Source: a virus. Taken from it: a stretch of DNA of 44,128 nucleotides. The translations under genes were made by a program, and so were the position numbers. Under the pieces are notes generated by a model that ran no database searches, was not told the origin of the DNA, and worked only from the letters and a program-made list of their open reading frames with translations. The stretch lies in the UHGV virus genome UHGV-0019911; one strand, written 5' to 3'. Below, piece after piece: positions 16,478 through 38,138 of this stretch (its first letter is position 1; the number at the start of each line of letters is the position of its first letter).

Positions 16478-18025
16478 ATGGAGCACAAATTCGCTGTTGC
16501 TTATCCGTATAGAGGAAAGTTCAAAGTTAATTCTCTGTTTGGAAAGAGAAAAGCACCTGCAACTAAAAATGGTAAGCATGGATCTTCATATCATACCGGA
16601 ATGGATTTAGGCAGCTTAACAAGTGATAAAACAATACTTTCTATTTCCGCAGGAAAGGTTACTAGAACAGCTTATCAAAGTGGTTATGGGAACTATGTAT
16701 GGGTAGCTCAGAGTGACGGTTATGGTGTTGTTTATGGGCATCTAGATAAGGTTCTTGTTAAGCAAGGTGAACATGTGAACTGTAGGCAGCCTATAGGAAT
16801 ACAAGGGAATACAGGTAATTCTAGTGGTTCACATTTGCATATAGGTATTTCTAATAGTACAGACTATTCAAAAACTCATGCAGATAAATATAATATGTTT
16901 ATAAATCCCGCTATATATTTCAATATGCAAAACATAAGTACATTAAAAGGTAAAGTGTTCGATGGGGGTTTAGCTCCTAATGGGAATACCTCATCTGAAA
17001 ACAGCACAGATAATAATTATGAGGTTGTTAGCTCTAGCTCTTATTCTAGCTATTTTAATAGCAATGAGCTTACTGCTAGTGGTGAATATTACAAAGTTAC
17101 TAATTTTGTTGGTACCTTAGGTGATTGGTTATATGGTAGAAGATACAGAGTGCTAGTTGATTTAGGCAATAATAAAGCCTTAGATGTTTCTCAGCTTAGG
17201 TGTTCTTTTACTGTTAACCATAGTGTACAAAATCCAACTCAGACGAGTAAAGTTACAATTTACAATCTTACGCCTAATGATGAGAATAAGATCATTAAAG
17301 AGGGGCAGAGGATTGTAATTGAAGCAGGATACACCGGAAGCCAATACGGAATGATCTTTATTGGTAATATTATACAGCCGATAAGAAGTAAGGAAAATGG
17401 AACAGATTATACTTTAACTCTTGTTTGTATGGATTGTGATAGGTATACTACTTACGGTTTGATAAACACAACTATTACAGCGGAACAGACGATGAGATCC
17501 GCAGTTAATTGTTTAACTACTAAGAGTTCTCAGAGTGTAGGTGCTGGATATTTAGTTGATTCTGATATTAAATACCCTAGAGGGAAAGTAATGTTTGGGA
17601 TGAGCAGAGATTTTCTAAATCAGATAGCTAGAAGTAATAACGCACAGTATTACACGGAGAATGGCAAAGTGAATATAGTTACTGCTTCTGGATTCAAGAA
17701 AGGTAGTATACTTGCTTTTGGGCCTAAGACAGGATTGATAAATGCACCCCAGCAAACGCAAATTGGCATTACATGTTCTGTTCTGTTAAATCCTAATGTG
17801 AGTTTAAACACTTTATTTTATGTTGATAATAAGAAAGTAACTGCTAATGAGTATAGCCCAGGTACGCCTAACAGGTATTTAGATTCTGAGGGCATATATA
17901 GAGCTATAAGCATTACGCATTCAGGTGATACTCATAGTGATGAATGGAAAACTGAGATAGAAGCTATAACACAGGCAGGTGCTCTACCTGCTATGAATGT
18001 TTCTCAGCTTATGTATGGTTGGTAA
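16478..18025 (+). CDS. tail-associated lysin: N-terminal peptidase M23 (LytM) domain fused to a baseplate-hub-like (XkdQ/gpP-like) region
   Basis: HTGMDL...GYGNYVWV...GHLDKV...GQ.IG..GNTGNSSGSHLHIG matches the M23 metallopeptidase signature; 515 aa in the baseplate cluster. Confidence 0.7.
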   Translation: MEHKFAVAYPYRGKFKVNSLFGKRKAPATKNGKHGSSYHTGMDLGSLTSDKTILSISAGKVTRTAYQSGYGNYVWVAQSDGYGVVYGHLDKVLVKQGEHVNCRQPIGIQGNTGNSSGSHLHIGISNSTDYSKTHADKYNMFINPAIYFNMQNISTLKGKVFDGGLAPNGNTSSENSTDNNYEVVSSSSYSSYFNSNELTASGEYYKVTNFVGTLGDWLYGRRYRVLVDLGNNKALDVSQLRCSFTVNHSVQNPTQTSKVTIYNLTPNDENKIIKEGQRIVIEAGYTGSQYGMIFIGNIIQPIRSKENGTDYTLTLVCMDCDRYTTYGLINTTITAEQTMRSAVNCLTTKSSQSVGAGYLVDSDIKYPRGKVMFGMSRDFLNQIARSNNAQYYTENGKVNIVTASGFKKGSILAFGPKTGLINAPQQTQIGITCSVLLNPNVSLNTLFYVDNKKVTANEYSPGTPNRYLDSEGIYRAISITHSGDTHSDEWKTEIEAITQAGALPAMNVSQLMYGW

Positions 18026-21019: not shown

Positions 21020-22774
21020 ATGGCAAGTAATAATATAAAGTTGTTTGATGAGAACAAAACAAATATGCTGTCAGATAGTGAGTATAGCACTAACACTCAA
21101 AGAGTAAACGGTGTGCAGTCTGGTATAGCTAGTTCTAAGCTTAATAATAAGGCTATGTACCAGGTTAGCTTAGTTGCTTATGCTATTGGGCAGCTTATGG
21201 CAGCTAATGGCAAGGATGCAAATGATGCTGATGCAGTTAGTACATTTGTTGCTAATATGGATGCCACCATGGTGCAGAAAGTAAAAGATATAGCAAGCAG
21301 TGAAGAAGCTAAAGCAGGTATAAATACTTCACATTACATGACTCCATACACTACTAAGGTAGCTATAGAAGAGTTTTATAATAAGAGTATAAAACCTGAA
21401 ATAAGTAGTTTATATAAAATAGGTGATATAAAGCAAACGGTTAGCTCTAATATTCCTGAAAATTGGCTTAGGTGTAATGGAGCAAAAATAGATAAAGAAC
21501 AATATAGTGAATTATGGAATATGACAAAAGAAACAATAACTAACTTTGATAATTACCTAAGTATTACAGTAACTAGCAATTTCCAAGAGACTTTTCAAAG
21601 AAGTTATAAATATTTTTACTTCAATGAGCATAATGTTAGTATTGTATTCTATAATGGTAGAATACAATATATTTATTCAAACGATAATTTTGCACACTAC
21701 ACAAGAAGTGAGCTGATAACAACAATAATACCAACTAATATATTGAGTGTATATGCAACTAATTTTGTTATATACAAAAATTATGCTTCTTGCATATTAG
21801 TTTATCAGGAACAATCGACTAGAAATTATATTTATTCAGAATTTAGAATTTATAATGATTGGACTTATAAGAATATAAGTATTGGTAATAAGTCTTATGA
21901 ATTTATTGTAAATAATTATGTATACAAAGATCGTGTAGGATCTTATTCTTTAGTTGCAAATGCTAAAAGTGACGTATCAGGTATAGCTCAAATTTTATAT
22001 ACTTTGTATAAACAAGAAAACTCAGATATAATAGAACTTCATAATACTGGTATAGAAATTCCATCACAGTCAGAATCAAAGATTAGAATACAAAATGGGA
22101 TATTTACTTATGAAGATGGATTTTATTTTACGCTATCTACAGTAGATTTTTATACTGATCCCAAAATTCAAGTATACAGAAGTGAAACTGTAAATGGTAG
22201 ATATACACTAATAAAAACATTAAATAGGAATGATATTATAGATGGTAGTGGTGTTTTGAGTAATAATGCAAGAGTATTTACATTATTAGATCAACAAATA
22301 GAAATAGAAGATGAAAATATAAAAAATTTGCTATACATATATTATGAAGCAGGCGGGAAGCCTTATATGTTTGGATTAAATTTAGTTACAAATGAAAAAA
22401 CATATGTTTATAATCCTAAATACATAAATAACTTAGTAAAAGACCCATGGAATCACCTAACTTATAAGAATGGTGTATTTTATTCTCTTCGTACTATTTC
22501 AGATACTTATAAATTATATGCATATGAAAATAAAGAAAGTAGCCAAGTATTATATGATTTGGGTTTTTTAGTACGCCCTAATACCTCTGGTACAAAGTTA
22601 AGTATAAATAACGGGATGTCGTGTCTATACGCTTATTCAAATGTGAGTGGTTCATCAAATCTTATTTTCGCTAGTTTTCAAATAGTATTTTCTAAAAATT
22701 TACCAATGATACCAGAAGAGCAAATAAACAATAACTATTATGCTTTAATAAAAGCAAAAGAGGATACAGTTTAA
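21020..22774 (+). CDS. tail fibre / receptor-binding protein. Constant N-terminal part to about 21326, variable C-terminal part Sv from 21373
   Basis: 584 aa. The N-terminal region is conserved tail-fibre-like; the C-terminal part is Tyr/Asn-rich. Contains the left 46-bp inverted repeat at 21327-21372. Confidence 0.7.
   Translation: MASNNIKLFDENKTNMLSDSEYSTNTQRVNGVQSGIASSKLNNKAMYQVSLVAYAIGQLMAANGKDANDADAVSTFVANMDATMVQKVKDIASSEEAKAGINTSHYMTPYTTKVAIEEFYNKSIKPEISSLYKIGDIKQTVSSNIPENWLRCNGAKIDKEQYSELWNMTKETITNFDNYLSITVTSNFQETFQRSYKYFYFNEHNVSIVFYNGRIQYIYSNDNFAHYTRSELITTIIPTNILSVYATNFVIYKNYASCILVYQEQSTRNYIYSEFRIYNDWTYKNISIGNKSYEFIVNNYVYKDRVGSYSLVANAKSDVSGIAQILYTLYKQENSDIIELHNTGIEIPSQSESKIRIQNGIFTYEDGFYFTLSTVDFYTDPKIQVYRSETVNGRYTLIKTLNRNDIIDGSGVLSNNARVFTLLDQQIEIEDENIKNLLYIYYEAGGKPYMFGLNLVTNEKTYVYNPKYINNLVKDPWNHLTYKNGVFYSLRTISDTYKLYAYENKESSQVLYDLGFLVRPNTSGTKLSINNGMSCLYAYSNVSGSSNLIFASFQIVFSKNLPMIPEEQINNNYYALIKAKEDTV
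21327..21372. repeat. IR-L: 46-bp perfect inverted repeat inside the tail-fibre gene (CTTCACATTACATGACTCCATACACTACTAAGGTAGCTATAGAAGA)
   Basis: Exact reverse complement is found at 23999-24044. Confidence 0.9.
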
Positions 22775-24057
22775 CTCATTTTACTTTCTTCTAAGTAAGT
22801 ATATGTATAAATTCTATACTCCATTGTCTCTGATTCTATTTGTATTTTATGCGAAGAACAAATAACAACTCCATCTGGAATATTATCATTATCACAATTA
22901 ACTGTTTTTAATATATAACCATTATCAAGCTTTATATTCTTTATTTTTTTTCTTTCGGGAATGTTATAACATAATAATATTTTTTTATAATCTAAACTTT
23001 GTTTGAGTGCTATATTTATAGCACCATAATAAATATCTGTACTACATAAATATGCAATATTATTTGCCTTATCAAACTTATAATTTTTTATTATACCGTT
23101 ATAACGTGATGACGTAGAAGCTATATATAAGTTATTTCCTTGTTGTATAATACGACCAACACCACCTGATTCTTCTGTTATAGATACTATTTGTACTTTT
23201 TTATTATATATACCTATTGTAACTAATCTAAAATCACTCAAAATATAACATACAAAATTTGCTATAACATATCCGTATGCGAAGCTAGAACCATAATTAG
23301 ATAAGTATATGTTTAAACTTACAGAAGTAGGTGAAGTTGTTTTATAATTACTTATTTTAGATAATTGTAAGTTAGGATCCACAAAATATATATTATCTAC
23401 ATCAGGGTCACATGCTAGTACATTATTTCCATGATAAACTGTTACATTAACATCAGGAGTTATTCTACTTAGGCGTTCAGCTCCATTTGTTCCGTTAAAT
23501 ATATAACTATCTCTAGCTTGTGATTCAGTTGAAAAGGTAACAACAAGATAATTTTCATCGTTCATCCTATTAACATTAACATTAACTATACTGCTGAATG
23601 ATGAATATTGAGATGCAACACTTTTGAATATTTTATTTTCTTCATCAAGTTTATAAACAGTTAAAGAGTTTCCACTTATATGCATTGAAAGTAATTTCCC
23701 TGAACATTCAATTAAAGAGTTATTAGTGATTATATTACTATTGGTTAATGTTACATCATAAAGCGTTACTTCTTCTGAATTTTCTAAATTCACTTTTACA
23801 ATAACTACATCTTGTGCACTACTACTAGAAGTAGCATAGCATACTCCCCAAAAATATCTTCTGCCTATTGTTTGTCCCATAATGCTAAATTGATTATATT
23901 CTGGTTTTCTATCTAATATTTTTTTTTGAATATAATTTATATTATAGTCTACTATTTCAGTTTCCTCGTATTGTGAAGAAAGTTTAGGTAACAATATATC
24001 TTCTATAGCTACCTTAGTAGTGTATGGAGTCATGTAATGTGAAGAGTAATTAAACAT
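22771..24057 (-). CDS. alternative tail-fibre C-terminal cassette (Sv'), silent in this orientation. Lacks an RBS; would fuse in frame to the constant N-terminus after inversion
   Basis: The only long - strand ORF. Its N-terminus SSHYMTPYTTKVAIE is identical to residues around 107-120 of the + strand fibre because it is encoded by the inverted repeat. The stop codon overlaps the + gene stop as TTAA. Confidence 0.6.
   Translation of the reverse strand: MFNYSSHYMTPYTTKVAIEDILLPKLSSQYEETEIVDYNINYIQKKILDRKPEYNQFSIMGQTIGRRYFWGVCYATSSSSAQDVVIVKVNLENSEEVTLYDVTLTNSNIITNNSLIECSGKLLSMHISGNSLTVYKLDEENKIFKSVASQYSSFSSIVNVNVNRMNDENYLVVTFSTESQARDSYIFNGTNGAERLSRITPDVNVTVYHGNNVLACDPDVDNIYFVDPNLQLSKISNYKTTSPTSVSLNIYLSNYGSSFAYGYVIANFVCYILSDFRLVTIGIYNKKVQIVSITEESGGVGRIIQQGNNLYIASTSSRYNGIIKNYKFDKANNIAYLCSTDIYYGAINIALKQSLDYKKILLCYNIPERKKIKNIKLDNGYILKTVNCDNDNIPDGVVICSSHKIQIESETMEYRIYTYTYLEESKMS
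23999..24044. repeat. IR-R: 46-bp inverted repeat partner
   Basis: Reverse complement of 21327-21372. Confidence 0.9.
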
Positions 24058-24109
24058 TCTGATAGAAAAAATAAGTCATAAAAAATATAAAATATTTTGC
24101 AAAAAAGTA

Positions 24110-24138
24110 TTTACAAGTTCAAAGTTCTATGGTATAAT
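24110..24138 (+). promoter_or_regulatory. promoter, -35 TTTACA, 17-nt spacer, TGGTATAAT
   Basis: AAAAAAGTATTTACAAG...TGGTATAAT motif family. Confidence 0.6.
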
Positions 24139-24173
24139 GGAACTATAAACAAAGGAACTACAAAACAATATAA

Positions 24174-24377
24174 ATGGAGGAAATGGTTATGAAGTACACT
24201 GTTAAACAGCTCTGGGATTTTGTTAATCGTATTGAAGTTGATGATCCTAATGTTACAAGAGATCGTGCACAAACTGCCATTGAGTTTCTTGACAATATTG
24301 TTGGTTTGGATATTTATGTTTATAATGATATGATGGATGCAATCGCTTATATCGTTCGTGAAAGCTACCATAGATAA
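24174..24377 (+). CDS. hypothetical small protein (67 aa)
   Basis: RBS AAATGGAGGAAATGG; downstream of the promoter. Confidence 0.45.
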   Translation: MEEMVMKYTVKQLWDFVNRIEVDDPNVTRDRAQTAIEFLDNIVGLDIYVYNDMMDAIAYIVRESYHR

Positions 24378-27405: not shown

Positions 27406-27434
27406 TTTACAAAACAATAAAAGTATGGTATAAT
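27406..27434 (+). promoter_or_regulatory. promoter, -35 TTTACA, 17-nt spacer, TGGTATAAT
   Basis: Motif family. Confidence 0.6.
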
Positions 27435-28329: not shown

Positions 28330-29353
28330 GTATTATAACTTATACGAACCAAGTGAACTATACAAAGTTATTTGCCCTTTTCACCCTGATAAAAATGCTA
28401 GTATGCAAATAAACCTAACTAATTCTTTCTTCTATTGTTATGGATGTGGTTGTAAAGGTAGTACTTTTGAACTTTATAAATACTTTCAACAAAAAGAAAA
28501 GAATAATAAAGGGGCGAATATAAGGGCTAAGAAAACTGATGATTTACAATTAAGAATTTCACTTAATAAGTTACTAAGTAATATATATAATAAAAGAAAA
28601 TATATAAAAGAAAATTCTAATTCTTTTGTTAATACTAATTCTTTTGTTGAAATTGAAAATAAACTAAACTACAAAGCTGGTATAAAACTTGCTAGAAATT
28701 ATTACAACAATTTGCCTACACCTAACTGGTATAAACCTTCTCGTAATCCTTCTGTTGAAGAAGAAACGAGGTTATGTTTACAGTACATGAAACAACGTGG
28801 CTTTACTCCACATACACTTTCAAAGTTTGGAGCTAAACCTTCTCTGAATAAATACTATCCTATCTGCATTCCTTTGTTAGAAAATGGATTGCTTAGAGGA
28901 TACGTAATGAGAACATTCGATAAAGAAATTGAACAACAAAGAAAATACATGTATAATCGTGGATTCAAACGTGAACTAATTCTACCAGGAACTTATGTAC
29001 AGAACGAACCCATTGTTCTTGTTGAAGGGTATATTGATTTTCTAAAAGCAAAGCAAATAGGAATTAAGAACTGTGCAGCTTTACTTGGTTGGAAGATAAG
29101 TTCACACCAACTACAAAAACTTAAAGAGAAAGGAATCACAAATATACTTTGTGCATTAGATAACGATGAAGCTGGGAATAAAGGTTATCGTTACTTAAAA
29201 CGTTTAGAAAAAGCTAAAATGTTAAATTCTGTTAAAAGAATACATTATCCAAAGAATTGTAAAGATATGGGTGATATTGCTAAAGGTTCTGAAGAGGCTG
29301 ATAAAATTCTACAGCAAATTGCCTATTTACAAACTAAGTTTTCTATGGTATAA
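28274..29353 (+). CDS. DNA primase (DnaG-like: CHC2 zinc finger plus TOPRIM)
   Basis: CPFHPDKNASMQIN...FYCYGCGCKG zinc finger; TOPRIM VLVEGYIDFL...ALDNDEAGNKG. Confidence 0.8.
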   Translation: MLMQQSLSPSQEKFIALLKYYNLYEPSELYKVICPFHPDKNASMQINLTNSFFYCYGCGCKGSTFELYKYFQQKEKNNKGANIRAKKTDDLQLRISLNKLLSNIYNKRKYIKENSNSFVNTNSFVEIENKLNYKAGIKLARNYYNNLPTPNWYKPSRNPSVEEETRLCLQYMKQRGFTPHTLSKFGAKPSLNKYYPICIPLLENGLLRGYVMRTFDKEIEQQRKYMYNRGFKRELILPGTYVQNEPIVLVEGYIDFLKAKQIGIKNCAALLGWKISSHQLQKLKEKGITNILCALDNDEAGNKGYRYLKRLEKAKMLNSVKRIHYPKNCKDMGDIAKGSEEADKILQQIAYLQTKFSMV

Positions 29354-29354
29354 T
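29326..29354 (+). promoter_or_regulatory. promoter, -35 TTTACA, 17-nt spacer, TGGTATAAT, embedded in the last codons of the primase gene
   Basis: Motif family. Confidence 0.55.
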
Positions 29355-29392
29355 ATTAACATACCACAAATAACTGATTGGAGGAAAAGAAA

Positions 29393-30202
29393 ATGGCAAA
29401 CTTGATTAAAATGATGAAAACACAAATTGCCAAGAGTGGTTCAAGTAAGAAAGAAATTATTTATTTTGCAAAGGACTCTGTTCATAGAGTTCGTTTCTTG
29501 CAGGAACTTGATCATGGTTATGAATTTGAATTTCATAATGACTGGGACACTAAAATTTTTGAATTGTGCAAGGATCCCGAGGACCATGAAAACTGCAAAC
29601 TTTGCAATGATGGTATTGCTATTCAGCAAAACTTTGTTTGGTGTGTTTGGGACTACGACAGTTCTTCTGTTAAACTCATTCAGTTCAAAGCAACTGGAGT
29701 TTCTCCCATTCCTGCTTTGATTGAGATGTATGAAGAATACGGTACGATTATGGATCGTGACTATAAGATTAAGAAAGTAGGCCAGGGACAAGGTTCTTCT
29801 TTCTCTGTTACTCCTCTTGATAAAGAACGTTTCTCAAATAGTAAAGCTAAACCTCTAAACCGTATGCAGGTTAAGGAAATTTTGGAGAAAGCTTGGACTT
29901 CTTCTAAGGTTGAAGATGAAGATATTGAGGAAGAAGAGGATGAGGAAATTGAGGAAGTAAAAACTTCCAAGAAAACTAAGAAAGCTAGAAAGCATAAGAA
30001 AACCATTCAGGATAAGTTGATGGAGCTTGAGCTTTCCGAAATTAAAGAAATTGCAAAGTTACTTGGTATGAGTAAGAAAGAGCTTAGGCAGTTTGATGAT
30101 GAAGAGGAACTGGTTGAGGAACTCACTGATAATTACGAGGATGAAGATCTGGAAGACTGCTATACTGAGTACATTGAAGATGGAGAGGACGATGATGATT
30201 GA
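29393..30202 (+). CDS. putative ssDNA-binding protein with a zinc-binding segment and a long acidic C-terminal tail
   Basis: C..H..C..C cluster and extremely acidic C-terminus (...EDGEDDDD), adjacent to the primase/polymerase genes; no fold is recognisable by eye. Confidence 0.35.
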   Translation: MANLIKMMKTQIAKSGSSKKEIIYFAKDSVHRVRFLQELDHGYEFEFHNDWDTKIFELCKDPEDHENCKLCNDGIAIQQNFVWCVWDYDSSSVKLIQFKATGVSPIPALIEMYEEYGTIMDRDYKIKKVGQGQGSSFSVTPLDKERFSNSKAKPLNRMQVKEILEKAWTSSKVEDEDIEEEEDEEIEEVKTSKKTKKARKHKKTIQDKLMELELSEIKEIAKLLGMSKKELRQFDDEEELVEELTDNYEDEDLEDCYTEYIEDGEDDDD

Positions 30203-30522
30203 TGTTGTATCAAATGTTCTCAATGCAAAAACGTTTACAAAAACTGATAACCAATACAGAAACTCCTTGTGACAATATTGATCAGTTCCATTATTCTGTT
30301 ACCGCTCTTGTTTGTGAATTAGGTGAGGTACTCCAAGCTGATAAGAGATGGAAAAATAATGGTAGAAATGATCATTATGATCGAGATGAAAAGCTTGAAG
30401 AGTTGGTTGATTGCTTTGCATTTCTGATAAATGCTTGCTTATACTCTGGTTTTACTTCAAGAGATATTTACCTTGCTTTTGTTAAAAAGTTTAATACTAA
30501 TGTAGAAAGGACAATGAAATAA
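30199..30522 (+). CDS. MazG-like / dimeric dUTPase-like all-alpha NTP pyrophosphohydrolase
   Basis: ALVCELGEVLQ...W...EELVDCFAFLI pattern of the MazG/dUTPase_2 EExxE family. Confidence 0.5.
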   Translation: MMLYQMFSMQKRLQKLITNTETPCDNIDQFHYSVTALVCELGEVLQADKRWKNNGRNDHYDRDEKLEELVDCFAFLINACLYSGFTSRDIYLAFVKKFNTNVERTMK

Positions 30523-31052
30523 TGGTTGTTATACTGGAAGGAATGAAGAGGTCTGGAAAAACTACATATGCTAATATTCTGAAGGATTATTCATCCCTTC
30601 CAGTATACTACTTAAATGACAGGACTCTACTGGAAAATGTGGATAACACTTCAATTAAAGATACAGTATATGGTTCTTGCCACACTATGGTTCAAATGGC
30701 AAAGATAATAGAAAAAACTACAAAAGGTAACTGTTTAATTATTTTTGATCGTTTGCATTTGAGTGAGCTAGTATATGGCTTAAGGCATAGAAACTATGAT
30801 GCAGATGGAATGTGGGAAATAGATAAGCAAGTAAGAGCTTTATGTCCTTATTGTTTATTGTTTAGTTCAGATACAGCAAATGAACGAACTGAAATAAATA
30901 GTTATAAAGAGGATTTTGAAACTTACTCAAATAAAAGTTGCTTAAATTGGATACATATTTCTTTAGATGGAACCAATGGTAAAGTAACACACAAACAGTT
31001 AAACTTAGTATTGCAAGATTATGACTTAAAATATAGTTTTGTTGGAGGGTAA
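30522..31052 (+). CDS. dNMP / thymidylate kinase-like P-loop kinase
   Basis: N-terminal VVILEGMKRSGKTT (Tmk-type Walker A) plus a DR...E motif. Confidence 0.55.
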   Translation: MVVILEGMKRSGKTTYANILKDYSSLPVYYLNDRTLLENVDNTSIKDTVYGSCHTMVQMAKIIEKTTKGNCLIIFDRLHLSELVYGLRHRNYDADGMWEIDKQVRALCPYCLLFSSDTANERTEINSYKEDFETYSNKSCLNWIHISLDGTNGKVTHKQLNLVLQDYDLKYSFVGG

Positions 31053-31054
31053 AG

Positions 31055-31978
31055 ATGGAAATTAAAAAGTTTGTAAAAGGGAAAAATGTTCTAATGATTC
31101 CTATTTTTTCCATGAGAAGTTATGAGACAGGTTTATATAATTTGGCTGCAGATGGAAATATGGCTAGAATTCTTTCTTTCTTGTTGGATGCTGATTTTAG
31201 ATCAGCTACAGTTCTTATTCCAGAAAATTCAATTGGTATTATGGAAGTAAGAGCTTTGTTAAATAGGCGCCATATTGATAATGTATTTTTCTATGCTACA
31301 GATGCATATGGTAAAAATGCAAAACAAACAAGAGATGAAATTGATAAGTTTGCAAGCTTACTTACTAATGAAGCTATGCTAAAGGTATATGATATAGTTA
31401 TTTCTGAGCCCAACTACTTAACTTATTATTTAGCATATAGATACCCTAAAAAAGTTATTTATTGGAATGTTGCTTCTGTTACAGACAAGGGAACACCTTG
31501 GTTTGTAAAAGAATATGAAACGATTGATCGCAAGATTGTTAAACTAGTTCCAACGGCTTGTGCAACTATTTCCCAGGTTAAGGAACTTGGTTATAATACT
31601 TTTGTTGGAGAATTTTATAATCCTGCATTATTTGACTTCAAGGTAGTTTACTTTCCCTTTAGGTTGACTGATGAAAATTATAAAGCAAAAGAATTCGCAG
31701 CTTTCATTAAAAACCTTTATGATAATGGAGTTAGGAACTTTAAAGTATTGTACACTGATGTAAACGATTCTTGTATTTTTGAAAGCAAAGATCCGTTCGT
31801 TAAAGTTTCGTCTGATAAAGTTTCTTATATTTCTGTTTTGAAGGGAAAACCAATTATTCCTTATTTTGATGATAGTGAAGTTCTAATGCACATTTCTTAC
31901 AAAGAGTTTGAATATTATGGTTGTAAGATTGTTCGTAACTTTAGTGATCTGGAAAGGATGATTCTAAGTGATGAATAA
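31055..31978 (+). CDS. hypothetical alpha/beta protein (307 aa), unknown enzyme, possibly a transferase
   Basis: No recognisable motif; embedded between the kinase and the U32-like gene. Confidence 0.4.
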   Translation: MEIKKFVKGKNVLMIPIFSMRSYETGLYNLAADGNMARILSFLLDADFRSATVLIPENSIGIMEVRALLNRRHIDNVFFYATDAYGKNAKQTRDEIDKFASLLTNEAMLKVYDIVISEPNYLTYYLAYRYPKKVIYWNVASVTDKGTPWFVKEYETIDRKIVKLVPTACATISQVKELGYNTFVGEFYNPALFDFKVVYFPFRLTDENYKAKEFAAFIKNLYDNGVRNFKVLYTDVNDSCIFESKDPFVKVSSDKVSYISVLKGKPIIPYFDDSEVLMHISYKEFEYYGCKIVRNFSDLERMILSDE

Positions 31979-33059
31979 CTTTAAGGTTGGAGTAAATTTT
32001 GATGAAGAACTTCTTGATTCTATCATTGAAATAAATGAAAAGTTCAAAGGAACTGGCAGTACAATATCTGAACTTTATGGTTCTATCAGACAACATGCTA
32101 ATCTTGCAGCTAGACCTTCTTTTAGGTTGCCTGATAAAAAAATGAGTGAATTGGAAAGTTATGTGAAGAAAGCAAGCAATAATGGGATTAGGTTCAACTA
32201 TACATTAAATTCTATTGCTCCATATGAAAGTAAAAAGGGACTGGCTAGCCGCCTAAACTTTATTGAATCTGTTGTAAATTATTTACTTGATATTGGAGTT
32301 TACAGAATCACAATTGCTAATCCCATTATGCTTGAAATATTCAAACATTTACAGAAGAATGTAAAAGTAGAACTTTCAACAATTGCACACATTGATACTA
32401 TTACACAGATTAAGTATTATCACGAAGAATATGGAGTAGATAAAATCTGTTGTAATTTATTAAAGAATAGAGACTTTAATTGGTTAGAAAAAGCTGCACA
32501 ATATTGTAATGATAATGATATTATTCTTGAGTTAATGGTAAATGAATTTTGTGGAGTAGGTGGAAAAACTTACGGTACACATTGTATTTATAGAGATAGC
32601 TGCTACATTTGCCATGCTACTAACCATACATTAAATGATGCTAATTTGCTTTGGGAATATCCTATGAATTTCTGTACACAAAGTAGAAATAAGAATCCTG
32701 CAAATTGGCTTCGTATGTGTTGGATCCGTCCAGACGATATTCATTATTACAATGAAATTGGTATCAACAACTTTAAGATAACTGGTAGAACTGGTACTAC
32801 TAACTATATTAAGAAAACACTTGAAGCTTACATGAGCCAACACTTTGAAGGTAACTTACTTTCTTTGTGGAAGCCATTAGAAAGCATCAAAGATAATGAA
32901 CTTGAAAATATTCATTCAACTTATATTGATTCTCAAAGCTTAAATGGATTTATTGAGAATTGGTCTTGTAATAGAAAGAACTGTGCAAATGAAGTATGTG
33001 GTGAAACATGTACTTACTGTCAAGACTTTTACAATGAATGCATAGCTAGAAAGGAATAA
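31968..33059 (+). CDS. peptidase-U32-family-like protein (RlhA/TrhP-type putative Fe-S hydroxylase fold)
   Basis: Blocks FNYTLNS, GVYRITIANP...ELSTIAH, DIILELMVNEFC with a downstream Cys cluster align by eye to the U32 TIM-barrel core. Confidence 0.45.
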   Translation: MMNNFKVGVNFDEELLDSIIEINEKFKGTGSTISELYGSIRQHANLAARPSFRLPDKKMSELESYVKKASNNGIRFNYTLNSIAPYESKKGLASRLNFIESVVNYLLDIGVYRITIANPIMLEIFKHLQKNVKVELSTIAHIDTITQIKYYHEEYGVDKICCNLLKNRDFNWLEKAAQYCNDNDIILELMVNEFCGVGGKTYGTHCIYRDSCYICHATNHTLNDANLLWEYPMNFCTQSRNKNPANWLRMCWIRPDDIHYYNEIGINNFKITGRTGTTNYIKKTLEAYMSQHFEGNLLSLWKPLESIKDNELENIHSTYIDSQSLNGFIENWSCNRKNCANEVCGETCTYCQDFYNECIARKE

Positions 33060-33062
33060 AAT

Positions 33063-35762
33063 ATGTTTGATGCGCATAGACATGATGAATACTCTTTCTT
33101 CGATGGGTCAGGAAAAGCTATTGAGCTTGCAACTTTAGCCAAGAAGAAAGGGTATACAGCTTTAGGCTTAACTAATCATGGAAATACTTCAGGTTTAGTA
33201 CAACATTATGATGCTTGTAAAGCTGTTGGTATTAAGCCCATAATGGGAGTTGAAGCTTATTTCTTGCCTAAGTATAAGGAAAATAAACGTGGTTTTCATC
33301 TTTGTTTGTTTGCAAAGAACTTAGAAGGATATAAAAACATAAATGAAATACAAAGCAAAGGTGAACTTCAAAAGTATTATAATCCTATTATTACATTTGA
33401 TATTCTCAAGGAACATAGTGAAGGCGTAATTTGTTCAACTGCTTGTGTAGCAGGTTTTCTTGCACAATGCATTATAAACAAGAAGTACTTACAGGCAAAG
33501 AAATTCATTAAGAAAATGAAAAGCATTTTTGGTGAAGATTTCTATATTGAAATTCAGCCATATAAAGTTTCTGAACCTGGTTTACAAGAGAAAGTTAATA
33601 TTGAATGTATTAAGCTTGCGAAAGAGTTTAATGTAAAATGTATTTTAACTTCTGATTCACATAGAGGTAAAAAGGAAGATCTTGAAAGTTATATAGCTAT
33701 GCACAGATTGAAAAATAATACAGAAGAATATATAAAGCACATATACGAAACTTATAAAGATCGATATATGCCTGATGTAAATGAAATGCAAAGGCGTTTT
33801 GTAAAAATGCATGAGAAAGATTTTGGGTTAAAGAAAGCTAAACTCTTAGCAAATGAAATGGAAGAAAACCTTGATGAAATTGAGGAAAAGGTTGATGGCG
33901 ATATAATCGATGAACTTGCTGAAATTCCAGCACTTCCTAAGTTTGATGAAAATCAAGATTCTTTTAATTTGTTAAAAGCTAAAGTTAAGCAAGGTTTGAA
34001 GGAACGTAAGGTATACAATGAGGAATATTTGAAAAGAGCTGCAGATGAGTTAAAGGTTATTAAATCTAACTCATTTGAAGACTATTTCTTAATTGTGCAA
34101 GATTATGTCTTATGGGCCAAAAATAATGGAATCGCAGTAGGTCCCGGACGCGGTTCTGGTTGTAACTGCTTAATTAACTATGCATTAGGAATAACTGATG
34201 TGGATCCTATATTTTTTGACTTAGATTACAAAAGATTTATTCGTGAAGATAAAAAACAACTTCCCGATATTGATGTTGACTTTGAAACTTCTCGTAGAGC
34301 AGAAGTTATTGAATACATGGTAAATAAATATAAAGGATATGCAGTTCAAATTGCATCATATGGAATGTACAAAGTAGATAATCTTGTAAATGATATTGTA
34401 AAACTTTATGAAGATATGGAGCAAGATGATATAAAGAAAATTAAAAAACTTATAAACGATAATAAGGATAGCGAAAAACAGGTTGACATTGAGCAACTTA
34501 AAATGAATCAAATGGCGCAAAAATTTAATGCAAAATATGAAGGACTAATTGATAATTTCTGTTTCTTGTATAATAAAGTTAAATATTTAGGTACTCATGC
34601 TGCTGGTGTAGCAATTTCTAATAAATCAATCTATTATTATACTGCGGTTAGATTTGATAAGAAGGAAGGAAAATATTTTTCAAGCTATAACTTGGTTGAC
34701 CTTGAAAGATGTGGAATCATTAAATATGATATGCTTGGACTTAGTACATTAAGTTCTTTGCAGGATTGCAGAAATTTGATTAAAGATAAACCAAGCATCA
34801 AAAAGATGATAAGAGATGAAAAAGTTCTTGATTCATTTGCTAAAGGAAATTCAAATGGAGTATTTCAGTTTGATTCAGAGGCTGCACAAAATATCTTAAG
34901 GGAGATACATGTAGATAATTTTACTGATGTTGTTGCAGCAAATGCAATGGATAGACCTGGTCCTCTTTCATTAGGTATTCCAGAGAAGTATGCATCAGCA
35001 AAAGAATATTGGAATGATAGAGAAGATAAACCTATCTATGCTAAGTATATCAATGATACTTATGGATGTATTTTGTATCAGGAGCAAGTTAATTCTATTG
35101 CTGTTGAATATGGTGGCTTAAGTTGGAACCAGGCTGACAAGTTAAGAAAGATGGATGATCCCGCATCACTTAAATCACGCAAATTACTTGAGCAATATCA
35201 TGATGAATTTCTTGATATTTTTGTTAAAGGATTGAAGAGATACAATGTTGGTAGAAATGAAGCTAGTCAACTGTTTGAAAACTTTCTTAATTATACGTTT
35301 AACAAAGGACATGCAGTTGGTTATGTTTTAATATCATTTGAAGAAATGTATTACAAAACTTATTATCAAACAATTTTTTGGTCAGTGAAGCTAAACTACT
35401 GTACTGAGAAGAATGAATGGAAGTTCCAGAATTTAGCTGCAAAGGATGGAGCTTTAATGCTTACTCCTCATGTAAATGGAACCGCAGGTTATTCTATTTG
35501 TGATGTTGATGGAGAGCAATGTATTCTAATCGGATTAAGTTCAATTAAGGGCATTGGTGAAAAAGTTGCTAAATCAATAGAAGAAGAAAGAATCACAAAT
35601 GGTGACTATACTGATATCGATGATCTTTGTGATAGACTTCCTAAACGTATTATTACAAGCAAAGTTAAAGAACTTCTTAAGGAAGCGGGAGCTTGTATAT
35701 TTGATAAGAAACGATATTTCAATCATGTAATGCAATATAACATGGATTTAGTTTCGAGGTGA
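33063..35762 (+). CDS. DNA polymerase III alpha subunit (DnaE-like, PHP domain N-terminus)
   Basis: PHP motifs FDAHRHDEYSFFDGSG, GLTNHGNTSG, GIKPIMGVEAY; 899 aa. Confidence 0.85.
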   Translation: MFDAHRHDEYSFFDGSGKAIELATLAKKKGYTALGLTNHGNTSGLVQHYDACKAVGIKPIMGVEAYFLPKYKENKRGFHLCLFAKNLEGYKNINEIQSKGELQKYYNPIITFDILKEHSEGVICSTACVAGFLAQCIINKKYLQAKKFIKKMKSIFGEDFYIEIQPYKVSEPGLQEKVNIECIKLAKEFNVKCILTSDSHRGKKEDLESYIAMHRLKNNTEEYIKHIYETYKDRYMPDVNEMQRRFVKMHEKDFGLKKAKLLANEMEENLDEIEEKVDGDIIDELAEIPALPKFDENQDSFNLLKAKVKQGLKERKVYNEEYLKRAADELKVIKSNSFEDYFLIVQDYVLWAKNNGIAVGPGRGSGCNCLINYALGITDVDPIFFDLDYKRFIREDKKQLPDIDVDFETSRRAEVIEYMVNKYKGYAVQIASYGMYKVDNLVNDIVKLYEDMEQDDIKKIKKLINDNKDSEKQVDIEQLKMNQMAQKFNAKYEGLIDNFCFLYNKVKYLGTHAAGVAISNKSIYYYTAVRFDKKEGKYFSSYNLVDLERCGIIKYDMLGLSTLSSLQDCRNLIKDKPSIKKMIRDEKVLDSFAKGNSNGVFQFDSEAAQNILREIHVDNFTDVVAANAMDRPGPLSLGIPEKYASAKEYWNDREDKPIYAKYINDTYGCILYQEQVNSIAVEYGGLSWNQADKLRKMDDPASLKSRKLLEQYHDEFLDIFVKGLKRYNVGRNEASQLFENFLNYTFNKGHAVGYVLISFEEMYYKTYYQTIFWSVKLNYCTEKNEWKFQNLAAKDGALMLTPHVNGTAGYSICDVDGEQCILIGLSSIKGIGEKVAKSIEEERITNGDYTDIDDLCDRLPKRIITSKVKELLKEAGACIFDKKRYFNHVMQYNMDLVSR

Positions 35763-38109: not shown

Positions 38110-38138
38110 TTTACAAATGAAATGTAATGTGGTATAAT
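38110..38138 (+). promoter_or_regulatory. promoter, -35 TTTACA, 17-nt spacer, TGGTATAAT
   Basis: Motif family. Confidence 0.6.

Follow-up and report, generated by a model that had tools for sequence, protein, structure and literature searches.

A four-gene cassette between SSB-like and polymerase genes

The virus genome UHGV-0019911, a stretch of 44,128 nucleotides that was analysed whole and is hereafter called the window, carries four contiguous genes on its plus strand between a gene for a single-stranded DNA-binding (SSB)-like protein and the gene for DNA polymerase III alpha (Pol III alpha). An earlier reading of the sequence alone (the original prediction) had described these genes as translationally coupled and had suggested that they form a pathway making a 5-hydroxypyrimidine deoxynucleotide, and the four open reading frames (ORFs) were confirmed at their expected places (Table 1). 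Their junctions consist of one-base overlaps (TGATG and TAATG), gaps of 2 and 3 nt and one 8-11-nt overlap, with a GGAGG/AAAGGA-like site upstream at each. Public assemblies place the start codons of genes 1 and 4 at ATG 30202 and ATG 31971, respectively, which are likely the true starts.

The product of gene 1 matched the Pfam family dUTPase_2 (PF08761; 45.6 bits, 1.2e-11, cutoff 22.9) and possesses the acidic metal-binding motifs ExxE (ELGE at residue 40) and ExxD (ELVD at residue 68). Profile and motifs together agree with its prediction as a nucleoside triphosphate (NTP) pyrophosphohydrolase of the all-alpha dimeric dUTPase/MazG type. It also matched phrog_173 (1.7e-16), the PHROG of the dCTPase gp56 of Escherichia phage RB69; the gp56-type enzymes are longer (173 versus 107 aa), PHROG 173 and the superfamily motifs being what they have in common. 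Since it shares this PHROG with T4-type gp56, and given the context of its equivalent in a sister phage (see below), we propose that gene 1 encodes a dCTPase that would supply dCMP and clear dCTP from the pool.

For gene 2, the nucleotide kinase assignment also held: its product matched Thymidylate_kin (37 bits, cutoff 27) and contains a P-loop (GMKRSGKT, followed by a further T) and a DRL motif. However, it scored well under the NCBIfam equivalog cutoff for dTMP kinases (TIGR00041, 39.9 versus 83.25), which points to a Tmk-like enzyme rather than a bona fide dTMP kinase ortholog. It belongs to phrog_761, the PHROG of RB69 gp45, and aligned with the T4-like gp45 family with an hhalign probability of 97.9%. 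We propose that it acts as a 5-hydroxy-dCMP kinase.

The 307-aa product of gene 3 had been called unrecognisable, and indeed it had no significant Pfam match and falls in phrog_3891, labelled as of unknown function. As sequence searches of the four cassette proteins against the PDB gave no useful matches, structure prediction was needed, and it returned a GT-B fold with two Rossmann-like domains, the architecture of a glycosyltransferase rather than of a replication accessory protein. The protein matched the first DNA glycosyltransferase of T4-like phages over its full length (E 6e-13 and 1e-11) and both halves of the split RB69 gp47/gp46, and shares its PHROG with the T4-like (Klebsiella phage) counterpart of the latter. 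It is thus a member of the gp46:47/DLP3 gp79 family of first glycosyltransferases (hereafter GT1). This homology supports the decorating role that had been suggested for it, and the enzyme may put the first sugar on 5-hydroxycytosine (5hoC) in DNA.

A U32-family protein aligned with the key residues of TrhP and RlhA

The 363-aa product of gene 4 proved to be a member of the U32 family, as predicted. It matched Peptidase_U32 (PF01136) with 36 bits (cutoff 22.4) in two stretches, a match present on nearly all of the 120 homologs listed, and phrog_5757, labelled 'peptidase', with E 1e-129; its predicted structure is a TIM barrel of the U32 type. A search with the phage U32 profile (hmmsearch) against the U32 proteins of E. 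coli found only fragmentary matches to TrhP, so that profile-profile alignment was required. With hhalign, the phage family aligned to E. coli TrhP, RlhA, UbiU and UbiV at 97.9%, and TrhP residues E162, C170 and C177 fell on E188, C206 and C212 of the window protein. Among 71 sequences of the phage family, E188 is conserved in 70 and both cysteines in all. They are two of ten invariant cysteines (161, 180, 195, 206, 212, 236, 339, 344, 348 and 351), which include a C-terminal CX4CX3CX2C group and are candidates for the four ligands of a [4Fe-4S] cluster.

The aligned glutamate and cysteines are essential for hydroxylation in TrhP and also in RlhA (PMC6599085). TrhP (YegQ) is required for the prephenate-dependent formation of ho5U34 in tRNA and RlhA (YdcP) for that of ho5C2501 in 23S rRNA (PMC6599085), while UbiU and UbiV, which contain iron-sulfur (Fe-S) clusters, take part in ubiquinone synthesis without O2, the oxygen being donated by prephenate (PMC10990095). 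The characterised U32 members are Fe-S proteins required for O2-independent hydroxylations that take their oxygen from prephenate, two of them at pyrimidine C5 (PMC6599085, PMC10990095). We propose, from the family, fold and residues just described and from the genomic associations given below, that gene 4 encodes a prephenate-dependent, O2-independent C5-hydroxylase of dCMP.

The phage protein belongs to the family of TrhP and RlhA and has their fold, its conserved residues align with the three essential ones, and an O2-free hydroxylation of pyrimidine C5 is predicted for it as well. It differs from them in being only remotely related, in a 10-residue insertion in the motif, in its additional CX4CX3CX2C group, in lacking their RNA-directed C-terminal extensions (363 aa versus 453 aa for TrhP and 653 aa for RlhA) and in its proposed substrate, a deoxynucleotide destined for DNA instead of RNA. 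With UbiU and UbiV it shares the family, a Cys-ligated Fe-S cluster (predicted in the phage protein) and a link to chorismate mutase, comparable to their PheA/TyrA requirement. Nevertheless, UbiU and UbiV form a heterodimer that acts on a prenylated phenol with the accessory protein UbiT, whereas only one U32 protein is encoded by the phage, in which no UbiT-like partner was detected.

Relationship with the 5-hydroxycytosine pathway of RB69

All four cassette proteins share PHROGs with proteins of T4-like phages, namely gp56, gp45 and gp50 of RB69 and the Klebsiella phage counterpart of gp46:47, and the RB69 counterparts lie in or beside the cluster for arabinosylated 5hoC. This DNA modification of RB69 and its relatives, and the cluster behind it, were published in 2025-26 (Lee et al., NAR 2026, PMC13326640). 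In the pathway, known from Escherichia phage RB69, Acinetobacter phage DLP3 and Rhizobium phage RL38J1, a ThyA homolog (RB69 gp48) converts dCMP into 5-hydroxy-dCMP (5hodCMP) with flavin and O2, as demonstrated by 18O2 labelling, and glycosyltransferases add sugars once the 5-hydroxydeoxycytidine (5hodC) is in DNA; a trio of Tmk-like kinase, GT1 and ThyA homolog recurs in the three phages, and the published DLP3 and RL38J1 clusters are devoid of U32 genes (PMC13326640). The U32 protein of RB69, gp50, is found in that paper only in Table 1, where it is labelled 'sugar or heterocycle reductase', and goes undiscussed; the paper contains none of the words chorismate, shikimate and gp49, and its discussion mentions tRNA hydroxylation pathways with no tie to gp50 (PMC13326640).

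The window U32 protein is 50% identical to gp50, and orthologs at about this level occur in 222 cultured phages, all T4-like. In these phages the gene is found between those for DNA polymerase and uvsX, and with it lie arabinose-phosphate genes, one gene labelled 'thymidylate kinase', another labelled 'thymidylate synthase' and one for a hypothetical protein of ~300 aa. GenBank labels for phage U32 proteins include peptidase, protease, hypothetical and 'UDP-arabinose biosynthesis'. The last is exemplified by the ortholog of Escherichia phage AlbertHofmann (MZ501047.1, 97347-98432), annotated as a 'putative enzyme involved in UDP-arabinose biosynthesis', a name that does not suit it because U32 is also present in phages without arabinose genes.

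The cassette resembles the RB69, DLP3 and RL38J1 pathway in its putative dCTPase-type pyrophosphatase, its Tmk-like kinase, its homologous first GT-B glycosyltransferase and the neighbourhood logic of kinase, GT1 and base-modifying enzyme. In contrast, it lacks the defining enzyme of that pathway, the flavin- and O2-dependent 5hodCMP synthase with its D169N signature: the best tblastn hit of a ThyA homolog in the window had an E value of 0.94, and six-frame searches with hidden Markov models (HMMs) found none at E<=1. The same six-frame searches detected neither chorismate mutase nor arabinose genes in the window, nor homologs of arabinose-5-phosphate isomerase, AfhE or the HAD phosphatase, and the window ORFs scanned contained no nucleotidyltransferase or mutase domain. 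The phage has no sugar-activation genes, and the proposed donor is a nucleoside diphosphate (NDP)-sugar of the host. Also missing in comparison with RB69-type phages are arabinose or galactofuranose activation, a second or third glycosyltransferase and a T4 gp1-type dNMP kinase, and the phage itself, which comes from an anaerobic Firmicute setting, is a 44-kb myovirus with Pol III alpha and belongs to neither the Straboviridae nor the Pootjesviridae.

In the literature covered, outside whose scope lie He et al. (Nat Chem Biol 2026) and Mahler et al. (Cell Host Microbe 2025), no role of phage U32 proteins as DNA-precursor hydroxylases was found, chorismate mutase next to phage U32 was unmentioned, and nothing relevant linked U32, prephenate or chorismate mutase to phage DNA modification. 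The suggestion of a pathway not known to be described for phage DNA is therefore only partly upheld: glycosylated 5hoC as a product class, made via the ThyA homolog, is already described (PMC13326640), whereas we found the U32 route to 5hoC undescribed.

A module swap in the slot between SSB and Pol III genes

The nearest cultured relatives of the window phage are the Agathobaculum phages AB434P2 and AB434P3 (portal protein 74% and polymerase 53% identical) and gut Clostridium phages. The replication module of AB434P2 is syntenic with that of the window (SSB, a variable slot, Pol III, RecA, a Cas4-like nuclease and RuvC), and its slot starts with the same two enzymes, a pyrophosphatase (46% identical) and a Tmk-like kinase (32% identical). 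In place of GT1 and U32, however, it has a ThyA homolog of the dCMP type, a choline-kinase-like protein, a cytidylyltransferase and two uncharacterised proteins. At the signature positions of the ThyA family (after PMC13326640), the AB434P2 homolog keeps D169, which indicates that it is not of the O2-dependent hydroxylase type, and has N177D, which indicates specificity for dCMP. The AB434P2 slot thus apparently contains an undescribed cytosine hypermodification cluster. In Clostridium phage CS266P3, the slot between SSB and polymerase is empty; in the same phage, a gene for an I-HmuI-like HNH endonuclease splits Pol III alpha into two ORFs (L062:5989-9555).

These differing contents mark the slot as a variable site for DNA modification, in which GT1 and U32 of the window appear to replace a ThyA-based module for cytosine modification that works with the same two enzymes, pyrophosphatase and kinase. 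We favour a mononucleotide as substrate and cytosine as the base mainly because of this swap.

Genes associated with U32 in 66 phage loci

We gathered 66 loci with U32 genes of this clade, drawing on cultured phages, IMG/VR, metagenome assemblies and GTDB genomes. Profiles derived from gene clusters served to classify the genes lying up to +-8-10 kb from U32. GT1 occurred in 49 of the 66 loci, in 32 of them without a ThyA homolog; ThyA homologs were found in 17 loci, all T4-like. Nucleoside monophosphate (NMP) kinases were present in 35 loci and belong to three unrelated forms, two Tmk-like families and one guanylate-kinase fusion.

Chorismate mutase genes accompany U32 in 22 of the 66 loci, in two independent architectures that were both verified with Pfam, the remaining genes being assigned by profile. 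A stand-alone CM_2 protein of 81-132 aa (phrog_10027, 'unknown function') adjoins U32 in 14 of the 17 T4-like loci, and a DAHP-synthase-CM_2 fusion adjoins it in jumbo and other phages. Prephenate is the product of chorismate mutase, and the shikimate pathway begins with DAHP synthase. As we can conceive of no other reason for these enzymes to stand beside U32, we presume that they feed a prephenate-dependent reaction.

The genes for the decoration are more variable. Phages like that of the window keep U32 and GT1 without sugar genes, and in two loci U32 occurs with a UDP-galactopyranose mutase (GLF), a TET-associated glycosyltransferase (TAGT-family) and a DXD glycosyltransferase. The U32 cluster of L004:7777-16179 and the syntenic L010 has these three enzymes along with a Tmk-like kinase, GT1 and a trimeric dUTPase/DCD protein; no ThyA homolog lies near it, and it is a candidate galactofuranosyl-5-hydroxypyrimidine system. 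In five other loci, a fusion of guanylate kinase and S-adenosylmethionine (SAM)-dependent methyltransferase replaces the glycosyltransferase; the order is a GP88-family protein, the ~430-aa fusion, a ~265-aa protein and then U32 (L045:7162-11092, L071:5186-9080 and L072:3044-7137; also L065 and L070). By analogy with the conversion of ho5U into mo5U in tRNA, this context suggests hydroxylation followed by O-methylation, perhaps yielding a 5-methoxypyrimidine in DNA. What the U32 loci have in common is a nucleotide kinase together with an enzyme for decorating a hydroxyl, and the persistence of U32 with different sugars or with a methyltransferase indicates that it tracks the hydroxyl acceptor and not one particular sugar. 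A ~200-aa family beside U32 in jumbo phages, considered as a possible kinase, turned out to be HAD-phosphatase-like.

Table 1 Coordinates of the cassette, its borders and selected related loci
Feature	Location	Strand	Size or content
Gene 1, dUTPase_2/MazG-type NTP pyrophosphatase	window 30199/30202-30522	+	107/106 aa
Gene 2, Tmk-like P-loop nucleotide kinase	window 30522-31052	+	176 aa
Gene 3, GT-B glycosyltransferase	window 31055-31978	+	307 aa
Gene 4, U32-family Fe-S protein (predicted)	window 31968/31971-33059	+	363/362 aa
SSB-like gene, left border of the variable slot	window 29378-30202	+	PHROGs 1607/14578/9721; homologous to the AB434P2 and CS266P3 border genes
DNA polymerase III alpha, right border of the slot	window 33063-35762	+	Pfam PHP, DNA_pol3_alpha, finger, HHH_6; 53% identical to the AB434P2 polymerase
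Promoter-like site TTTACA-17-TATAAT with extended -10 TG	window 29326-29354	+	upstream of the SSB gene; 11/12 consensus match
AB434P2 slot cluster	L061:416-5582		dUTPase_2-like, Tmk-like, choline-kinase-like (366 aa), cytidylyltransferase-like (151 aa), 328-aa protein, ThyA homolog, 361-aa protein
Stand-alone CM_2 beside U32	L001:7158-7403, L002:7391-7648, L014:11393-11791		Pfam CM_2
DAHP-synthase-CM_2 fusion beside U32	L005:5764-6819, L030:11079-12197		Pfam CM_2
Further chorismate mutase loci beside U32	L012, L033, L034, L039, L063, L064

Oxygen and host ecology

The window phage and the U32 loci outside the T4-like phages come from anaerobe settings, the latter being binned to Oscillospiraceae, Erysipelotrichales, Romboutsia, Gastranaerophilaceae, Tannerella and Phocaeicola. 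Agathobaculum and the gut Clostridium hosts of the nearest cultured relatives are strict anaerobes. Among cultured phages, the GT1 family has 370 records, 57 of them from Acinetobacter and 17 from Rhizobium phages, and the U32 family has 222 records, of which the listed rows correspond to phages of Enterobacterales and Shewanella. Acinetobacter and Rhizobium appear neither in these rows nor in the tally of the ten most frequent U32 genera, whose smallest count is 3. The hosts in these two genera are strict aerobes, whereas Enterobacterales and Shewanella are facultative anaerobes. GT1-carrying phages of strict aerobes thus appear to lack U32, a distribution that fits an aerobic/anaerobic enzyme pair like TrhO/TrhP.

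A putative O2-independent pathway to glycosylated 5-hydroxycytosine

On balance, we think it probable that the cassette is a minimal O2-independent pathway for exchanging the cytosine of the phage DNA for glycosylated 5hoC by means of a prephenate-dependent U32 C5-hydroxylase of (d)CMP. The dUTPase_2/MazG-type enzyme would hydrolyse dCTP to dCMP, thereby removing the canonical nucleotide and supplying the substrate; U32 would hydroxylate dCMP at C5 with oxygen taken not from O2 but from prephenate of the host shikimate pathway. The Tmk-like kinase would then produce 5-hydroxy-dCDP, which the host NDP kinase would convert into the triphosphate for incorporation by the phage Pol III alpha, an enzyme that would need to accept the modified dNTP. 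Finally, the GT-B enzyme would glycosylate the 5-hydroxyl once it is in DNA, using an NDP-sugar of the host, with acceptor and donor both predicted, and the resulting DNA would resist restriction and CRISPR nucleases. The 5-hydroxypyrimidine deoxynucleotide pathway of the original prediction, while still conjectural, gains support from the ties of U32 to GT1, nucleotide kinases and chorismate mutase and from the exchange with a ThyA module.

This scheme follows the logic of T4 (gp56 dCTPase, gp42 dCMP hydroxymethylase, gp1 kinase and alpha/beta-glucosyltransferases), in which dCTP is destroyed, dCMP modified, re-phosphorylated and incorporated, and the DNA glycosylated with a host NDP-sugar. 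In the window phage, however, the hydroxyl would sit directly on C5 (giving an ether-linked sugar) instead of on a hydroxymethyl group, the enzyme modifying the base lies outside the ThyA superfamily, and kinase and transferase belong to other families. In enterobacterial T4-like phages, RB69 gp50 would be the anaerobic counterpart of the O2- and flavin-dependent ThyA-like 5hodCMP synthase, a pairing that would mirror those of TrhO/TrhP and UbiI-H-F/UbiU-V.

Several points weigh against this interpretation. The literal PROSITE U32 pattern is unmatched in the phage protein, owing to the 10-residue insertion and a Cx5C in place of Cx6C, and the U32 proteins of E. coli are only remotely similar to it, the NCBIfam models for UbiU and TrhP giving E values of ~1e-3, far under their cutoffs. 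Direct hydroxylase activity has not been reconstituted in vitro for TrhP, RlhA or UbiU/UbiV themselves (PMC10990095, PMC6599085), and that of phage U32 proteins, in the window phage as in any other, is predicted. In E. coli, the ThyA homolog alone is enough for 5hodC formation (PMC13326640), so that in RB69-type phages U32 would be dispensable in air and its role there is putative. The window phage encodes no chorismate mutase, and RB69 gp49, considered as one, was supported neither by Pfam nor by our custom profile, although the corresponding gene encodes CM_2 in 14 of the 17 T4-like loci. The absence of ThyA from the larger contigs holds for the +-8-10 kb around U32, the genus tallies cover the top 10 genera and leave room for a few Acinetobacter or Rhizobium U32 records, and the pattern of host aerobiosis rests on few independent phage lineages. 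We infer, moreover, every catalytic activity, the choice of cytosine over uracil, the nucleotide rather than the DNA as the level of action, and the sugar.

Alternative explanations

U32 might hydroxylate cytosine already in DNA, much as RlhA and TrhP act on folded RNA and TET/JBP on DNA, GT1 decorating the product and the pyrophosphatase and kinase being left with general pool management. The known pyrimidine-directed U32 proteins do act on RNA polymers and not on nucleotides (PMC6599085), a related locus pairs U32 with the TAGT-family glycosyltransferase, and the invariant C-terminal cysteine cluster is an extra feature of the phage protein. We nonetheless find action on the polymer rather unlikely, given that NMP kinases of three unrelated forms accompany U32 in over half of the loci, that the pyrophosphatase and kinase also serve the ThyA homolog of the sister phage, whose family acts on mononucleotides by definition, and that phage U32 lacks the C-terminal extensions of TrhP and RlhA. 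A different base is less probable still. U32 could make 5-hydroxy-dUMP, in line with the uridine hydroxylation by TrhP (PMC6599085), to replace thymine and then be glycosylated; gene 1 belongs to a family named after dUTPases, a trimeric dUTPase/DCD-type gene lies beside the cluster in several related loci, and in this AT-rich genome a modified thymine would protect more sites. Yet the U32 protein is half identical to orthologs from phages for which 5hoC is the sole modified base on record (PMC13326640), the family of the glycosyltransferase is the one assigned to 5hoC, the pyrophosphatase shares its PHROG with the gp56 dCTPase, and the ThyA homolog of AB434P2 bears the dCMP-specific N177D. 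There is an even smaller chance that U32 is a phage tRNA or rRNA hydroxylase of the TrhP/RlhA type that tunes translation, next to a glycosyltransferase that is unrelated or has another substrate. Pyrimidine-directed U32 proteins have been demonstrated to act in RNA hydroxylation only (PMC6599085) and the phage encodes two tRNAs, but U32 stays beside a DNA glycosyltransferase family and nucleotide kinases in phages whose replication and structural modules are unrelated, lies within a putative replication operon, stands in for the ThyA module of the sister phage and, if removed from the DNA pathway, would leave the glycosyltransferase with no acceptor for want of a hydroxylase.

That U32 works on the sugar is implied by the label 'sugar or heterocycle reductase' (PMC13326640, Table 1) and by the GenBank annotation of the AlbertHofmann protein, and in T4-like and many jumbo phages the gene does lie among those for arabinose-5-phosphate isomerase, kinase/pyrophosphorylase and phosphatase. 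A role as arabinose-pathway enzyme was rejected, since the window genome and its relatives retain U32 and GT1 without any arabinose genes; other loci pair U32 with galactofuranose genes or a methyltransferase, and the linkage to chorismate mutase has no sugar rationale. We know of no U32 protein that acts on sugars. According to the RB69 paper, furthermore, UDP-arabinose synthesis was attributed to AfhE and AfhF acting on arabinose 5-phosphate, no step being given to a U32 protein (PMC13326640), and we regard a sugar substrate as very improbable. Least of all do we expect an ordinary pool module of dUTPase and thymidylate kinase alongside a genuine U32 peptidase and a glycosyltransferase for the host envelope, with no DNA modification, as the database names of these families would have it. 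The kinase lies under the dTMP-kinase equivalog cutoff, the U32 members characterised so far are not accepted as proteases (PMC10990095), each of the four genes has a counterpart in a cluster proven to modify DNA, and the slot is a variable modification site in related phages.

Other features of the phage genome

The window starts 40 nt before the portal gene (at position 41) and ends inside TerL, which is preceded by TerS, and public assemblies of the same phage measure 44,183-44,269 bp. With portal and terminase at its ends and assemblies of similar size, the window is essentially a whole, circularly permuted, near-complete genome. The phage is represented by metagenome assemblies only, and no near-identical DNA was found among cultured phages. 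Genes at 6.4-22.8 kb encode a myovirus head, sheath, baseplate and fibres, and the remainder is devoted to lysis, replication and recombination. A baseplate-hub protein (16478-18025) has an N-terminal metallo-endopeptidase/endolysin-like domain according to PHROG matches and is probably a tail-associated cell-wall hydrolase.

The two tRNA genes, tRNA-Met (CAT) and tRNA-Leu (TAA), are followed by that of a 188-aa protein carrying the C-terminal DNA-binding domain of Spo0A (Pfam 1.4e-12; together at 2062-2824). This protein also points to a spore-forming Firmicute setting, and its effector domain could interfere with the sporulation control of the host. The only sizeable leftward genes (428 and 86 aa, minus strand, 22771-24371) had no significant family match; they coincide with the lowest-GC stretch of the genome (0.265), where GC skew is reversed, and may represent a horizontally acquired moron or host-interaction gene.

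The promoter-like site upstream of the SSB gene has the same hexamers as two other intergenic sites (27406-27434 and 38110-38138), and the three may be early or middle promoters of the phage, although these calls are consensus matches only and the genome total of promoter-like sites is not above chance. No convincing terminator was found between 29500 and 33400, so the site may drive the SSB, cassette and Pol III/RecA/Cas4/RuvC genes as one unit; together, the two observations are weakly consistent with co-expression of the cassette with the replication genes.

Implications of a possible phage DNA modification without oxygen

More broadly, we see about even chances that the phage U32 proteins (phrog_5757, including RB69 gp50) represent the first known hydroxylases of DNA precursors to depend on prephenate and dispense with O2. 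In that case, they would constitute a widespread anaerobic route to 5-oxy-pyrimidine DNA in the gut and other anoxic habitats, followed by glycosylation (GT1) or perhaps O-methylation, with chorismate mutase and DAHP synthase boosting the oxygen donor and with U32 and ThyA forming a pair in enteric T4-like phages. If so, U32/prephenate hydroxylation would extend from RNA and quinones to DNA precursors, and a soluble, single-protein U32 with a small-molecule substrate could enable the in vitro reconstitution that has been elusive for TrhP, RlhA and UbiUV. Two conserved genes that have no assigned role in the hundreds of T4-like phages sequenced, those of the 'peptidase' gp50 and of the small chorismate mutase beside it, would be explained, and the U32/ThyA pair would keep the genome fully modified inside the gut and outside, and the DNA modification of RB69 is predicted to depend on gp48 in air and on gp50 without it. 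Strictly anaerobic phage-host systems would likewise make a modification whose known synthesis needs O2. Hypermodified DNA would thus be common in gut phages, with consequences for the evasion of restriction and CRISPR, for phage therapy and for bias in virome sequencing and cloning.

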